Shown: positions 1 through 5,992 of the stretch, in pieces
Layout: every line of letters begins with the position of its first letter
Numbering within the stretch: position 1 is the stretch's first letter
DNA from: Candidatus Omnitrophota bacterium
GTDB taxonomy: Bacteria > Omnitrophota > Gorgyraeia > Gygaellales > Profunditerraquicolaceae
DNA: 64,000 nucleotides
Reading direction: 5' to 3'
Assembly (NCBI GenBank): GCA_028712375.1
Contig: JAQTQG010000002.1
Location: 8,032-72,031 of the forward strand
Program-made: the position numbers and the translations under genes
The notes under the pieces: model-generated
What the model was told of the DNA's origin: nothing
Seen by the model: only the letters and a program-made list of their open reading frames with translations
Database searches by the model: none

Positions 1-467
1 CCAGTAAACGATAACAGATTACCCTCACTATCTTCAAGTATGCCTATTTTTTGATGCGCGATTCCATTAGGTAAGACTGCGATTTTTATTTTAAGTGCAC
101 CTTTTTTTATCATCCAACAAAGCATTGAAACATGGTTTCTTTTTAGCTCATCTTCGATATTACTTATTTCCTCAAGTACACGATCTTCATTTTCTTTCAA
201 TGCGTTCTCAATCGACTCTTTATCTTCGCGAGAAAAAACTACACTAGTGACTAAATACATTTTACCGCCATTATTTATAAACGCGGCTATACCTTTAGCT
301 GCAACAGCCAGGGTAGTAGAAGAAAAAAAACCAGCTATTCTTTTATAAGTTTTAGATATTGATAGGGCTGGAATGTAAAAATCTTGTAGCAGATCATCCT
401 CATCTGACCAGTAAGATGATTTAAAACTTATATCTTTTAACGTCGCTTTATTATTAAGTCCACACAT
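1..467 (-). CDS. PLD/HKD-family nuclease (phospholipase D-like endonuclease), N-terminal part; gene runs off the left window edge
   Basis: Reverse-strand translation from ATG at 467-465 gives MCGLNNKATLKDISFKSSYWSDEDDLLQDFYIPALSISKTYKRIAGFFSS...GIAHQKIGILEDSEGN. The H-x-K...D...G-x-N spacing is PLD/HKD-like. It starts 7 nt downstream of the dcm stop on the same strand. No stop is reached before position 1. Confidence 0.5.
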   Translation of the reverse strand, partial: MCGLNNKATLKDISFKSSYWSDEDDLLQDFYIPALSISKTYKRIAGFFSSTTLAVAAKGIAAFINNGGKMYLVTSVVFSREDKESIENALKENEDRVLEEISNIEDELKRNHVSMLCWMIKKGALKIKIAVLPNGIAHQKIGILEDSEGNLLSFT

Positions 468-473
468 TAATTA

Positions 474-1628
474 TTAAAGCTTAATACTTAACTCTTTCGA
501 TAATCTATTATATATACAATCATCAAAAATTATTTCTGTTCCTGTTTTATGTTTAATCCTGCGGATTAGAGTCCTCCCATTCTTTATTAGCCTCACTTTA
601 TTTTGATGCCTCTCTAAATCAAGCATAATCTTGCCTGCAATGATATTAGCAAAATCAACTGGCACAGCGTTGCCTACCATCTTATAGCCATCACTAACAT
701 CAGTATATTTAAAAATGAAACTATCCGGAAACGTTTGAATCCTGGCGCATTCTCTAACTGAAAGACGCCTGTATAAATGCTCCTTACCTTTTACAAATTC
801 TCTTTTATTTTGTTCGATAAATTCCATCTTTGGTGCCTGCGGGTGAATTGGAGCATGCCTACCCCCTGCCTGTATTGTAAAAGATTGTTCATCCCAACTC
901 CTTACCCTGTTCCTCGACATATAAATTGTTGAGAAGTTCCCAATCATGTATTCATGATTAGGAACTTTAAGGCTATCCCCATTTGTTTTGTTATATTTCA
1001 ATGCTGGCTTAGGATCTTTCAAATCACCAATCGCGTCTCTTAAAGTTAAAAGCTTTTCAGAGCCTTCTGGAAATTCAAAAGTCATCCCCATTTTCTTATG
1101 ATATCCCACTATAATGACTCTTTCTCTGTCTTGTGGGACATTATAATTTTTAGCATTCAACAACTTATATGCGATATTGTAGCCAGCTTCGGCAAACTGA
1201 CTAAGAATTTTTTCAAAAGCTTCTTTATGAATACTTGCTAAAATACCAGACACATTTTCTGCTAAGAAAAACAACGGCCTTTTGTCTTTTAACAATCTTA
1301 TATATTCAAAAAATAACTGCCCTCTATGATCTTTTATCCCCCGGCATGCTCCAGCCTCGCTCCAGCTTTGACAAGGTGGGCCGCCAATAATGCCATCGCA
1401 TTTAGGTATTTCGTTAGAAGGGATATCAACTATAGATCTTTTATCAAGGAATACCTTAGGATGATTGCCTTCAAAAGTATAAGTTTCCCATATTGTCTTA
1501 TCAAATTCATTGGCCCAAATAATTTCAAATCCAGCTTTTTCAAAGCCAAGGTCTAACCCACCACAACCCGTGAAAAGCGATACTACTTTAAAGCCACTTT
1601 CCTTATTTTTTCGATTTTCTTTAAGCAT
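474..1628 (-). CDS. dcm: DNA (cytosine-5)-methyltransferase (Dcm family)
   Basis: C5-MTase motif I FTGCGGLDLGF, motif IV GGPPCQSWS and an ENV motif. 384 aa. Confidence 0.9.
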   Translation of the reverse strand: MLKENRKNKESGFKVVSLFTGCGGLDLGFEKAGFEIIWANEFDKTIWETYTFEGNHPKVFLDKRSIVDIPSNEIPKCDGIIGGPPCQSWSEAGACRGIKDHRGQLFFEYIRLLKDKRPLFFLAENVSGILASIHKEAFEKILSQFAEAGYNIAYKLLNAKNYNVPQDRERVIIVGYHKKMGMTFEFPEGSEKLLTLRDAIGDLKDPKPALKYNKTNGDSLKVPNHEYMIGNFSTIYMSRNRVRSWDEQSFTIQAGGRHAPIHPQAPKMEFIEQNKREFVKGKEHLYRRLSVRECARIQTFPDSFIFKYTDVSDGYKMVGNAVPVDFANIIAGKIMLDLERHQNKVRLIKNGRTLIRRIKHKTGTEIIFDDCIYNRLSKELSIKL

Positions 1629-2008
1629 ATTGGTAAATCCTTAATTATTTGGTACTGCCAAAACCTGATAACCCGCCAGCCACATTTCTTTAGTTCTTTA
1701 TTATTTAACTTATCCCTAGCAATATTCCTCTCAATCTTTGGTATCCAATAATTCCTATTGGCCTTCAGTTTCTTCTTTTTTTCACGCCATTTATAACCAT
1801 GCCAAAACTCACCATCAACAAATATTGCTATCTTCTTATCTATAAGCGCGGCATCTGGCTTGCCCGGTAAACTACTATAGTAACTTTTAAATCTAATCTT
1901 TTCTTTTCGGAGTGCCTTATATAATAGAATCTCAGGCGTGGTTTTTTCACTTTTGATTTTCCGCATCAAGTTAGACCTTTTTGCGGAAACCTTAAATTCA
2001 TATGCCAT
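1583..2008 (-). CDS. vsr: Very short patch repair endonuclease Vsr
   Basis: The FVDGEFWHG motif and ~140 aa size are typical of Vsr. Its 3' end overlaps the dcm start, the classic vsr-dcm pairing. Confidence 0.85.
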   Translation of the reverse strand: MAYEFKVSAKRSNLMRKIKSEKTTPEILLYKALRKEKIRFKSYYSSLPGKPDAALIDKKIAIFVDGEFWHGYKWREKKKKLKANRNYWIPKIERNIARDKLNNKELKKCGWRVIRFWQYQIIKDLPICLKKIEKIRKVALK

Positions 2009-2119
2009 ATTATAACTCTAAAAATATTAAGTTAAAGTTATAGTTTGGCATTCCTTTACCTCGCCTGCATGAGGTATGCTTGACTCCCCTACCAATATAG
2101 ACGTAAAAAATGCCAAAAT

Positions 2120-4007: not shown

Positions 4008-5614
4008 AAACTATAGAACCTAAAGAGAAGAAAATCAATAATTGCGCTATTTATACACGAAAATCCGTAAGCGACGGGCTTGAGCGCGATTTTACCACTC
4101 TGGATGCCCAGCGCGAATCCTGCGAAAGCTACATTGCCAGCCAAAAGAATGAAGGCTGGATATGCCTGCCGGATGAGTACGATGACGGGGGCTTCACCGG
4201 AGCAAACACAGATAGACCTGCTCTTCAAAGGCTTATGACCGATATTAAAGCTAACAAAGTTAACTGTGTAGTAGTCTATAAAGTTGATCGTTTATCGCGA
4301 TCCCTGCTTGATTTTTCAGAACTGCTTTCCGTGTTTGAAGAATACAATGTGACTTTTGTATCAGTAACACAGCATTTTAATACGCAAAACTCGATGGGCA
4401 GGCTTACACTTAACATCCTCCTCTCCTTTGCGCAGTTTGAGCGCGAGATTATTTCTGAACGCACTCGTGACAAAATGGGGGCTGCTAAGAAAAAAGGTAA
4501 ATGGATCGGTGGCAGGCCATCTTTAGGCTATAACATTGATAAAGAAAAACATAAGCTCGTGATCAACCCGAAAGAAGCCGAACTTGTACGTAAAATCTTC
4601 AACTCATATATCGAAAAACGATCCCTTCTATCTGTAACTATGATTATGAATGATTTAAGCTATACAACTAAGCGGCATACATCTGAAACAGGTAAAAAGT
4701 TTGGCGGAATCCAGTTTAGAAGTAATGGCATACAGAGGATTTTAACAAATCCGATGTATACCGGCAAGGTTACATACCAAGGCGAGCTTTATCCCGGAGA
4801 ACATGAAGCGATCATTTCGGAAGAAACATACCAAAAGGTACAAAACATACTTACAGAAAATAGACCTAATTGTAAGGTGGCCCAGAAAACTAAGCACGTG
4901 GGCTTACTTACCAGCCTCCTGCGCTGTAAAGCATGTAATTGCGCGATGTATTTCTCATACAACATCAAAGCCAGCAAATACAGGTATTACTATTACCTCT
5001 GCATGAACGCCAGTAAGCGTGGATATAAAAACTGTCCTACCCGTTTGCTTAGCGCGCAGAAGATTGAACAAAAAATAGTGGAATTGCTAAGAACGCTGAC
5101 TTCCATGCCAAAACTCGATGAGAAAGTATGGGATACTTTCAACCTTCAGGATAAAATTGCAATTATTAAAACAGTCCTCAAAGAGGCAAGCTTCGATGGC
5201 AATAAAGGAATACTTGAAATTGTCCTTCTGAAAAGCAATAAGATACACCAATATAAGGTAGAATTAAAAGAATTAAAGAACCTACCAGTCCCTCCTAACC
5301 AGATCAATATTAAGAATGAATCGCAATTACGACAGAGACTAATTTTAGCTCATCAAATACAAGATATAATCTCTGCTGGCAAAGTGAAAGACTTAAAGCA
5401 AATGGCTGAGTGGCTTAACTTAGGAAATATTAAAATCTACTTAATCATGAACTCACTTATGCTTGCGCCAAGCATTCAAGAAGATATCCTTCTCTCTAAT
5501 GATAAAAACATCTCTTTAATTCCTGAATACAAGATTAATGAAATCTGCCACGAATTAGATTGGGAAAAACAAAAAGAAAAGTGGCAGAAACTGCTCAAAG
5601 ATCCTACCGCGTAG
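4004..5614 (+). CDS. Large serine recombinase / integrase
   Basis: N-terminal resolvase catalytic domain (IYTRKSVSDGLERDFTTLDAQ, VVYKVDRLSRS), followed by a recombinase domain and a Cys-rich zinc-ribbon region (CKACNC...CMNASKRGYKNC). 536 aa. Confidence 0.9.
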   Translation: MKTIEPKEKKINNCAIYTRKSVSDGLERDFTTLDAQRESCESYIASQKNEGWICLPDEYDDGGFTGANTDRPALQRLMTDIKANKVNCVVVYKVDRLSRSLLDFSELLSVFEEYNVTFVSVTQHFNTQNSMGRLTLNILLSFAQFEREIISERTRDKMGAAKKKGKWIGGRPSLGYNIDKEKHKLVINPKEAELVRKIFNSYIEKRSLLSVTMIMNDLSYTTKRHTSETGKKFGGIQFRSNGIQRILTNPMYTGKVTYQGELYPGEHEAIISEETYQKVQNILTENRPNCKVAQKTKHVGLLTSLLRCKACNCAMYFSYNIKASKYRYYYYLCMNASKRGYKNCPTRLLSAQKIEQKIVELLRTLTSMPKLDEKVWDTFNLQDKIAIIKTVLKEASFDGNKGILEIVLLKSNKIHQYKVELKELKNLPVPPNQINIKNESQLRQRLILAHQIQDIISAGKVKDLKQMAEWLNLGNIKIYLIMNSLMLAPSIQEDILLSNDKNISLIPEYKINEICHELDWEKQKEKWQKLLKDPTA

Positions 5615-5837
5615 CGATAGAAAACCTCTCTCCCCGTATATAATGGCCTCCTGAAGCTCAAAAATACCTCAAATATTGCCGATATTTTCATTATATAGCG
5701 AGCATTATATAAGAGAGGAATTGGCCTATTTTGGCGATAAAGTGGCTCTATTCAGAGAGGCTTTTTAAACAGCTTGTGGCGCGGATACAACCAAAATGCA
5801 GCCAATTAACGCGACGCCCTAACTCCTACGGACATCG

Positions 5838-5880
5838 CCAGATAAAAACGGCTATGATCACTGTTGCGATCATAGCCGTT
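5838..5880 (-). terminator. Rho-independent terminator downstream of tRNA-His
   Basis: Perfect 13-bp stem AACGGCTATGATC/GATCATAGCCGTT, followed on the minus strand by TTTTTATCT. Confidence 0.7.
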
Positions 5881-5916
5881 AAACTCTCCAACACTACGAG
5901 GAGAATGATATTACTG

Positions 5917-5992
5917 GGGTGGCTAACGGGGATCGAACCCGCAACCTCCAGAGCCACAGTCTAGCGCTCTAACCAGTTGAGCTATAGCCACC
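5917..5992 (-). tRNA. tRNA-His (anticodon GTG)
   Basis: Reverse complement reads GGTGGCTATAGCTCAACTGGTTAGAGCGCTAGACTGTGGCTCTGGAGGTTGCGGGTTCGATCCCCGTTAGCCACCC. It carries the G-1 extra base, a GTG anticodon, and T-arm GGTTCGATCC. Confidence 0.9.

Follow-up and report, generated by a model that had tools for sequence, protein, structure and literature searches.

Large serine recombinases (LSRs) carry out recombination between a phage attachment site (attP) and a chromosomal one (attB), a reaction in which large serine integrases introduce a concerted double-strand break at a 2-bp core and rotate their subunits, with directionality being set by a cofactor. The attP and attB sites of such integrases measure about 40-50 bp, and crossover at 2 bp generates the hybrid sites attL and attR; the attB sites of characterised serine integrases are located in protein-coding genes or in unstructured intergenic DNA. 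The current work concerns a stretch of 64,000 nucleotides (nt; hereafter the window) from a Candidatus Omnitrophota bacterium (GenBank assembly GCA_028712375.1, contig JAQTQG010000002.1, positions 8,032 to 72,031 of the forward strand), in which an LSR gene, preceded by a gene for a DUF2924 protein, faces a tRNA-His gene 3' end to 3' end, with 300 nt separating the LSR stop (5614) from the tRNA 3' end (5915). We consider it probable, at roughly 0.65, that window positions 1 to about 5633 represent the integrase-proximal end of an integrated temperate tailed-phage genome; this figure covers the reading as a whole, namely the prophage end, the role of DUF2924 as set out below, and a target at the distal end of a resident block of conserved non-coding DNA located between the tRNA-His and LSR genes.

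The closest described systems were retrieved by comparison with 50,697 phage records, among which the LSR finds its best full-length counterparts in Wolbachia phage WO, whose recombinases are 36-38% identical to it across 90% of the length, while the recombinase of Acidithiobacillus phage AcaML1 is 43% identical over 68%, corresponding to the first two-thirds of the LSR. Judged by sequence comparison, the LSR qualifies as a putative ortholog of both. In each of these phages a DUF2924 open reading frame (ORF) is placed directly upstream of the recombinase, overlapping or abutting it (gp30/gp31 in WO, Gp4/Gp3 in AcaML1), and the DUF2924-LSR pair is a known phage integration module of this WO/AcaML1 type. 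Phage WO has in common with the window a DUF2924 gene placed just ahead of the LSR gene and overlapping with it, and a recombinase at one prophage end with the phage/host boundary just past its stop codon (record annotation; PMC9203015). In the WO literature this recombinase serves as integrase and typing gene, and att sites have been mapped beside it, with the magnesium chelatase gene, VNTR-105 and other intergenic sites as targets (PMC9203015). AcaML1 shares with the window a DUF2924 ORF that ends where the LSR ORF starts and a module placed at the genome end, but its LSR, Gp3 ('site specific recombinase large subunit'), is shorter at 459 amino acids (aa), and a 'small subunit' is encoded separately behind it; a literature search for the AcaML1 attachment site gave nothing usable.

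The integration module and the phage DNA behind it

The LSR of the window is composed of a Resolvase domain (PF00239, residues 15-167, E = 4.1e-36), a Recombinase domain (PF07508, residues 189-286, E = 5.3e-18) and a Zn_ribbon_recom domain (PF13408, residues 301-363, E = 1.1e-9), with Ser21 of the motif AIYTRKS at the position expected for the nucleophile. It matches PHROG 95, 'integrase', at E = 1.1e-114, and its sequence matches in the PDB are the integrases of TP901-1, phiC31 and SPbeta (YokA), the TP901-1 catalytic domain being matched at E = 2e-22. From the function of its family, the LSR would be expected to catalyse attP x attB recombination of the phage with the chromosome. The translational coupling of a DUF2924-like gene to that of a 536-aa LSR, put forward in an earlier reading of this DNA from its letters alone (hereafter the original prediction), is confirmed by two ORFs that occupy the same strand and overlap by 4 nt (4004-4007). 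In the IMG/VR collection at least 559 stretches encode LSR relatives; among the best 80 of these, to which all IMG/VR counts given below refer, DUF2924 is located directly upstream of the LSR in 72, the other 8 being cut by the contig start.

The DUF2924 protein is predicted to possess a SAP/HeH-like helical DNA-binding domain; when its structure was compared with the PDB by Foldseek nothing was returned at E <= 0.001 (best E = 2.5), and its sequence matched PDB entries at E >= 0.045 only. As a near-constant co-encoded partner of the LSR the protein would bind DNA, and in this integrase clade it is probably an obligatory DNA-binding accessory. Its translational coupling to the integrase makes a role as a classical, separately regulated directionality factor unlikely; the directionality factors of characterised serine integrases are unrelated proteins that are expressed separately (PMC11795197). 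The one paper found to name DUF2924 alongside a serine recombinase does so only in passing (PMC11376236). Its constancy in WO, AcaML1, 72/80 IMG/VR relatives and all Omnitrophota copies seen makes DUF2924 a testable case of a required DNA-binding cofactor, which bears on WO-type integrases in genome engineering and on Wolbachia genetics. Omnitrophota contigs of up to about 220 kb encode DUF2924 proteins that fall into more than 60 clusters at >=80% identity, and the element family is therefore common.

The DNA to the left of the window became accessible through an exact-protein look-up, which yielded the 13,643-bp contig L001 (GCA_043956695.1, JBINOA010003457.1; retrieved sequences carry L numbers). 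This contig matches window 1-5614 at 100% identity and reaches 8,029 bp further leftward through, in order, PbeA, a 56-aa ORF, PbeC, a dnd-associated-4-like gene, a ParB-N6/N4 methyltransferase, a helix-turn-helix (HTH) protein and a large terminase (TerL). TerL (PHROG 38, E = 1.9e-97) is situated 6.4 to 8.0 kb left of the window start, the ParB-N6/N4 methyltransferase matches PHROG 498 at E = 1.4e-120, and the HTH protein beside TerL is possibly the small terminase; a sister element, L218, displays the same order of TerL, ParB-methyltransferase, cargo and DUF2924-LSR. Since the LSR matches a PHROG integrase and L001 carries TerL and the ParB-methyltransferase, the island is taken as a prophage end that carries the integrase, and not as a restriction-modification island in which a recombinase happens to lie. 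The original prediction had foreseen an integrative element delimited by the LSR and extending past the window edge, and the element indeed continues for at least 8 kb further leftward on L001, as far as TerL. Of the identities that had been offered for it, a prophage remnant or an integrative and conjugative or mobilisable element, the prophage is favoured by TerL and the ParB-methyltransferase, whereas the remnant and the conjugative or mobilisable element are not retained, since the locus reads as a prophage end with defence cargo. From the junction inward the order would be LSR, DUF2924, MazG, cargo, ParB-N6/N4 methyltransferase, HTH protein and large terminase, the cargo in turn being ordered as orphan ORF, Vsr, Dcm, PbeA, 56-aa ORF, PbeC and dnd-associated-like gene. 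At least 13.6 kb of the phage is documented, and its full length would be near 40 kb. A relative of the phage was found in IMG/VR neither with the LSR alone nor with TerL as query, and the phage is absent from that collection. Omnitrophota is, to our knowledge, a phylum without cultured phage-host pairs, and the locus provides a record of a temperate Omnitrophota phage and of the integration module that serves it.

Window 1-5614 is compositionally foreign to the host chromosome. Against a host baseline of 1-kb windows across 5993-64000 (n = 58; mean GC 0.428, sd 0.023, minimum 0.382), the successive 1-kb windows of 1-4000 have GC contents of 0.347, 0.360, 0.364 and 0.352 (z -2.8 to -3.5), and 1-5614 as a whole has a GC of 0.35 versus the host mean of 0.43; the DUF2924-LSR stretch (3537-5614) is nearer to host composition (GC 0.394, z -1.5). 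Measured by tetranucleotides, the L1 distance between 1-5614 and the host amounts to 0.264, about 8 sd beyond that of host windows (5-kb control windows: mean 0.129, sd 0.017, maximum 0.193). The AT-richness that the original prediction had attributed to the first ~5.6 kb is thus borne out by GC windows and tetranucleotide distance alike, and the genes it had placed there (a restriction-modification-like operon, in which Dcm and Vsr are found, a MazG-like gene, DUF2924 and the 536-aa LSR) as well as tRNA-His are all present at the coordinates it gave. L001, the sole other contig with the exact LSR, ends precisely at 5614, as it might if an assembler had wrongly joined a phage contig to a host contig at 5614/5615; we hold such an artefact to be extremely improbable, given that the order LSR-block-tRNA-His recurs in five independent assemblies from other projects (JGI, ENA, Logan), being kept by loci L086, L087, L179-L181, L183, L218 and L219.

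The conserved block and the phage-host junction

The block between tRNA-His and the LSR gene, about 300 nt in length, was found in ten distinct copies at six kinds of locus, LSR-occupied as well as LSR-free, and it follows tRNA-His or a pseudo-tRNA-His 3' end. An nhmmer profile built from eight copies detects a single copy in the window, at 5626-5919 (E = 1.9e-73), and finds none in the phage extension on L001 or in any IMG/VR locus; no Rfam family matches the block. Its parts are a hairpin (hairpin 1), a terminator, a 31-nt motif, a GCCAATTCCTCTC box and three copies of a subtype-specific 9-mer. Across nine copies the four block helices are 89.7% paired (27-49% with slid partners), and 14 helix pairs are changed on both sides, including pairs of a long-range 10-bp helix (helix 4) that is formed by the second direct 9-mer and the inverted copy, abuts the junction, and exhibits compensatory changes between the block subtypes TATATAATG, TATTTAATG and TAGTTTATG. 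As an exact pattern the 31-nt motif recurs in L008 and in five metagenome contigs, chance predicting 0 occurrences in the window, and it has no match in IMG/VR; it was considered as attB and rejected, being intact in occupied loci. A 16-nt pattern from the GCCAATTCCTCTC box had 31 IMG/VR matches, none of which matches the block profile, and these are taken as chance. As a separate observation, the ATG of the second 9-mer opens a 71-codon hydrophobic ORF that runs antisense into the LSR gene (5476-5691, minus strand); the equivalent ORFs comprise 14 codons in L086 and L084 and 18 in L088, and coding is doubtful.

Loci L088 and L172-L177 contain the block in the absence of an LSR, followed by a Fur-family regulator and a znu-type operon of host-like GC and skew; in L088 it is ATTAGGTTAGGAGCGAGG and the Fur-family/znuA genes that come after the block. 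Over 5637-5920 the block of L088 and L172-L175 is 91.6% identical to that of the window, the L176 copy 84%, and L177 contains the distal half. No host orthologues common to the window and L172 were found, these empty-site comparators (L088, L172-L177) sharing only the block. With a GC of 0.423 the block is host-like, and on these comparisons it is probably resident host-side DNA.

Where phage and host DNA meet can be read from the points at which similarity breaks. Between the window and L088 similarity ends at 5637, 22 nt from the LSR stop, and between the occupied locus L218 and the empty loci L088, L176 and L177 it runs through to GGAATTGGYAAAAGTAGA, ending 14-16 nt before the LSR stop. Contig ends fall in the same place: on the phage side L001 stops at 5614, and on the host side L085 runs for 48 nt after its block before it stops. 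The blocks themselves are related in a manner that does not follow the LSR: the window block is 90.5% identical to that of L088 and 80.6% to that of L218, such that phage-linked blocks are not each other's nearest. Because the similarity breaks, the contig ends, the block relationships and the host-like GC of the block agree, the junction, a hybrid att site, most likely lies at 5615-5636, at the distal end of the block and 280-300 nt downstream of tRNA-His. The integration target would accordingly be the distal end of the block rather than the tRNA gene, with the LSR stop 1-22 nt from the junction, and conservation of the block would direct related phages to one and the same site in different hosts. 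It had been proposed to search for a direct repeat of the tRNA-His 3' region as the second att site; as the junction maps to about 5615-5636, such a repeat is not expected, and the tRNA is probably not the attachment site.

A different placement of the boundary follows if the block is regarded as belonging to the same prophage, as its own terminal segment (P' arm). Crossover would then take place at the 3' end of tRNA-His, within or close to CCCCAG or the T-stem GAGGTT, a replacement terminator would be brought along, the right boundary would fall at about 5915-5920, and LSR-free blocks would be scars or termini of older elements that make up an accretion array. We judge this unlikely; the observations that speak for it are the following. 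In L183 (7220-9925) tRNA-His is followed by a first block (a), a leader and leuA-like gene (571 aa), a pseudo-tRNA-His 3' end with CCCCAG, a second block (b) and the LSR, i.e. the second block follows the pseudo-tRNA and directly abuts the LSR. Inserts that end in a ~35-nt tRNA-His-3'-like arm, then CCCCAG and then the block are present in L088 (4796-14584, equal to L172 1-9535), L176 (1-1459) and L084 (2190-2796), one of them being an AT-rich island on the tRNA side of the block with XRE regulator, ParB-like, SNF2, radical SAM and EVE genes; this layout of foreign island, arm, CCCCAG and block is that expected at the far end of a tRNA-integrated element, and the inserts do resemble the distal termini of elements that have entered at the 3' end of tRNA-His. 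The closest retrieved relative, L091, has no block after tRNA-His, of the five fully sequenced LSR locus types, three (window, L218, L183b) have the GAGAGG-rich end of the block at a distance of 0-11 nt from the LSR stop, and Logan contig L182 breaks inside tRNA-His.

Viral relatives lend themselves to the same argument, as 13 of the 80 have a tRNA-Asn gene, a terminator and a spacer of 0.45-6.8 kb before DUF2924-LSR. In these loci (L094, L105, L106, L109, L122, L123, L125, L126, L151, L153, L164, L165, L169) tRNA-Asn shares the strand of the DUF2924-LSR pair and precedes it, often where the contig begins; behind the tRNA come a terminator hairpin and a conserved TTTTGTTTAC-like sequence. In L108 the place is taken by tRNA-Met. 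Sequence context thus shows the DUF2924-LSR clade to be often tRNA-linked, and no second copy of the tRNA-Asn 3' end was found in these loci within the sequence examined.

Against a block carried by the phage stand the block relationships given above, which do not follow the LSR, and likewise the block of L086, which resembles block (a) of L183 and not the LSR-adjacent block (b) despite 85% LSR identity. Similarity between empty and occupied loci ends 14-16 nt from the LSR stop, which is unexpected for a random deletion end-point; L001 stops at the block boundary instead of running through into the tRNA; the GC of the block equals that of the host; and its profile finds no copy in IMG/VR. Two simpler schemes were also considered. 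The block as simple native host DNA with CCCCAG as attP was revised, given the L183 tandem and the pseudo-tRNA arms, and the island ends of L185 and of L088/L172 as parts of one element were rejected, there being no overlap.

Integration at the distal end of a resident block is nevertheless our preferred reading, and the following points weigh against it. The junction is deduced from relatives and not from an empty site of the same species, and the window is without some 14-18 nt that L218 and L088 share before the junction, so that registers differ. The left prophage end is outside the retrieved DNA, and no second att site, attP or crossover dinucleotide was seen; TerL is the sole virion gene in the documented 13.6 kb, portal, capsid and tail genes being outside the retrieved DNA. 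Finally, the tandem blocks of L183 favour a block that belongs to the element, and at least one of them came with inserted DNA. Other islands would use the tRNA-proximal end of the block (CCCCAG), leaving behind pseudo-tRNA-His 3' fragments and, in one case, a tandem array. A more far-reaching proposal, which we regard as distinctly doubtful, is that the block is a recombination platform with two entry points, one tRNA-proximal (a tRNA-His 3' mimic plus CCCCAG) and one distal (the inverted 9-mer plus the GAGAGG-rich tract). Were this so, the block would duplicate together with its pseudo-tRNA end and cargo would accrete in tandem behind tRNA-His (the leuA-like gene, the Fur/znu operon, toxin-antitoxin pairs, defence islands and prophages), amounting to an integron-like array run by serine recombinases with DUF2924 reading the repeated 9-mers.

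Occupied and empty loci in relatives, and the cargo

The host RNase PH is 89% identical to that of two Omnitrophota metagenome-assembled genomes, and the host DUF748 protein carries the annotation Omnitrophica in NCBI. In four further Omnitrophota lineages DUF2924-LSR converges on tRNA-His at the same locus and in the same orientation. In L218/L219 the LSR is 81% identical to that of the window at the amino acid level and the host RNase PH 88%, the cargo consists of AAA_15, an N6 methyltransferase and DUF87, and a single blastn alignment (78.6%) covers window 3432-6009. The LSR of L179/L185 is 59% identical to that of the window, with Vsr, Dcm and Hachiman as cargo. At 55% identity are the LSRs of L183, with MazG and RE_HaeIII as cargo and MazG beside the module as in the window, and of L086/L087, where tRNA-Arg directly adjoins tRNA-His. 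The L183 and L086 LSRs are 85% identical to each other in hosts that differ in locus structure and tRNA-His sequence, and for this reason the comparison argues for horizontal spread with a conserved target rather than for vertical inheritance. Across the lineages, LSR similarity does not track host similarity, and the cargo differs.

Module-free loci are found as well, the original prediction having proposed to check whether tRNA-His is unoccupied in related genomes: L091, the closest among the retrieved relatives (DUF748 80%), has a DUF2339 gene directly after tRNA-His, and L008 and L028 have other genes at the locus. The sequence of tRNA-His is identical in relatives L005 and L091. The locus therewith offers natural occupied/empty pairs for a serine integrase beside a tRNA gene.

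That five lineages have homologous modules at one place and in one orientation could also mean that a domesticated or decaying remnant beside tRNA-His was inherited vertically from before the divergence of these lineages and is not currently mobile, a view to which the more than 60 DUF2924 clusters in Omnitrophota contigs of up to about 220 kb and the lack of structural genes beyond TerL in the documented DNA could be added. We deem this very improbable. The LSR is incongruent with the host (85% between L183 and L086, 55-59% between the window and L183/L179, 81% to L218), the cargo is wholly different between copies, L091, L008 and L028 are without the module, the composition is strongly foreign, all ORFs are intact, and a second public contig contains these 5.6 kb at 100% identity. 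The original prediction had named the same genes at the same place with uniform composition as evidence against an inserted element; of this, homologous modules at the same place are found, but the cargo differs, LSR identity is incongruent with the hosts and composition is non-uniform, and because of these three observations the pattern points to repeated site-specific integration.

With respect to the cargo, PbeA (PADLOC E = 1.3e-226), whose gene is complete on L001, also matches NCBIfam dnd_restrict_1 at E = 6.5e-131, which is under that model's cut-off; PbeC of L001 is DndD-like (PADLOC E = 6.8e-98), and a 138-aa gene of that contig has a weak dnd_assoc_4-like match. PbeA, the 56-aa ORF, PbeC and the 138-aa gene constitute a module (window 1-467 plus L001 5148-9739) beside Dcm and Vsr. 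Pbe defence, which is associated with DNA phosphorothioation, consists of the pbeABCD genes and a dndCDEA modification module. There is no dndCDEA within the 13.6 kb, and the module is filed as Pbe-like only; it may represent Pbe-type defence paired with C5 methylation instead of phosphorothioation. The operon next to it had been described as restriction-modification-like, of which the modification side holds, Dcm and Vsr being clear, whereas the adjacent 266-aa ORF has no family match in Pfam, NCBIfam, PHROGs or PADLOC and hence none to a restriction endonuclease family in these four libraries; by position only, it is a candidate restriction endonuclease. Promoter-like sites are no more numerous in the region than in shuffled sequence, and the one listed in Table 1 is weakly supported.

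The interval between the ParB-methyltransferase and DUF2924 is a cargo hot spot (L185 16597-19729; L218 3843-9863; L183 12589-13203), where Pbe, Dcm and Vsr give way in sister elements to Hachiman (HamA/HamB), to AAA_15 with an N6 methyltransferase and DUF87, or to RE_HaeIII. Defence systems are thus swapped at this interval between otherwise related phages.

Further candidate mobile genes were observed around the tRNA cluster. L006 (15257-16756) encodes an unrelated LSR of 477 aa, 24% identical, with its stop codon inside the 3' acceptor end of tRNA-His, which makes it a candidate for a serine integrase that truly uses a tRNA gene. Small GIY-YIG genes of 80-86 aa are present in L091 (11237-11701), L006 (14464-14724) and L183 (5531-5782); in L091 a duplicated 17-nt copy of the tRNA-His 5' end borders the insertion, a pattern suggestive of a mobile gene of the homing-endonuclease type. 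Elsewhere in the window (14803-15209), a tmRNA gene specifies an unusually long tag of 29 residues (ANTQVSRLGTFVQPSFAAKPMFVPAFGLN), and a similar tag is found in relative L005.

Table 1 Features at the left end of the window and copies of the conserved block in relatives
Feature	Sequence	Position	Strand	Remarks
PbeA-type PLD-helicase	window	1-467	-	N-terminal 155 codons of 694 aa; gene runs off left edge
Dcm, C5 cytosine DNA methyltransferase	window	474-1628	-	PF00145 E = 1.2e-94; PADLOC MTase_II E = 5.7e-111
Vsr very-short-patch repair endonuclease	window	1583-2008	-	PF03852 E = 2.9e-20; PADLOC Vsr; overlaps dcm start
Orphan ORF, 266 aa	window	2120-2920	-	same operon as Vsr/Dcm
MazG-like nucleotide pyrophosphohydrolase	window	3011-3358	-	PF12643 E = 1.6e-20; PHROG 3301 pyrophosphatase
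Promoter-like site TTGATA-18-TATATT	window	3488-3517	+	upstream of DUF2924-LSR; 10/12 consensus matches
DUF2924 protein, 156 aa	window	3537-4007	+	E = 5e-38; putative DNA-binding partner of integrase
LSR, 536 aa	window	4004-5614	+	integrase of the element
Most likely right junction, hybrid att site	window	5615-5636		phage half-site would extend into LSR 3' end
Conserved non-coding block	window	5615-5920	-	between tRNA-His and LSR
Inverted 9-mer CATTATATA	window	5637-5645	-
Direct 9-mers TATATAATG	window	5703-5711 and 5689-5697	-
31-nt motif TATCTGGCGATGTCCGTAGGAGTTAGGGCGT	window	5814-5844	-	forms helix 3
Intrinsic tRNA-His terminator	window	5847-5880	-	15-bp stem then T run; helix covaries in block alignment
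tRNA-His (GTG)	window	5915-5991	-	host gene; ARAGORN; Rfam 65.6 bits
Block copy	L088	4498-4794
Block copy	L176	1460-1756
Block copy	L086	3560-3854
Block copy	L084	1893-2189
Block copy	L179	7295-7580
Block copies	L183	7292-7589 and 9604-9902
Block copy	L218	about 12080-12395

Comparison with known systems

The integrases of TP901-1, phiC31, Bxb1, A118 and SPbeta (SprA) have the same three-domain architecture as the LSR of the window, and we know of none among them that has been described with a DUF2924 partner. Accretion arrays of integrative and conjugative or cis-mobilisable elements, such as ICESt1/CIME at the fda locus of Streptococcus thermophilus, are made up of tandem units with shared att-like repeats, some of them integrase-less; the block and leuA-like gene of L183 resemble such an integrase-less unit, but accretion arrays repeat a short att site whereas L183 repeats a structured block of 300 nt. 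Islander/TIGER-type tRNA islands, which employ tyrosine integrases, share the tRNA-linked hot spot, relatives of the window showing pseudo-tRNA 3' fragments, in one case in tandem; the window element differs from them by its serine recombinase and by a junction about 280-300 nt distant from the tRNA. Serine integrases were seen to use t(m)RNA genes in only 14/297 cases, which was called previously unreported (PMC7192596), and a serine integrase beside a tRNA gene is an association that the literature treats as rare and unproven (PMC7192596).

As to phage WO, its targets differ from the tRNA-linked block of the window element, as does the host phylum, and the Pbe, Dcm, Vsr and MazG cargo sets the window element apart. 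Membership of the Symbioviridae is defined by nucleotide homology to WO together with a common core gene content, by a PAAR gene within the baseplate module and by hosts that are endosymbionts (PMC9203015). The hallmarks of WO are its eukaryotic association module, ankyrin genes and PAAR baseplate gene; the window element is known from its integrase end only, and no Symbioviridae membership is claimed for it. The element is of an ordinary kind, equipped with a WO-type module, and its relatives occupy the same spot behind a conserved structured block in several lineages.

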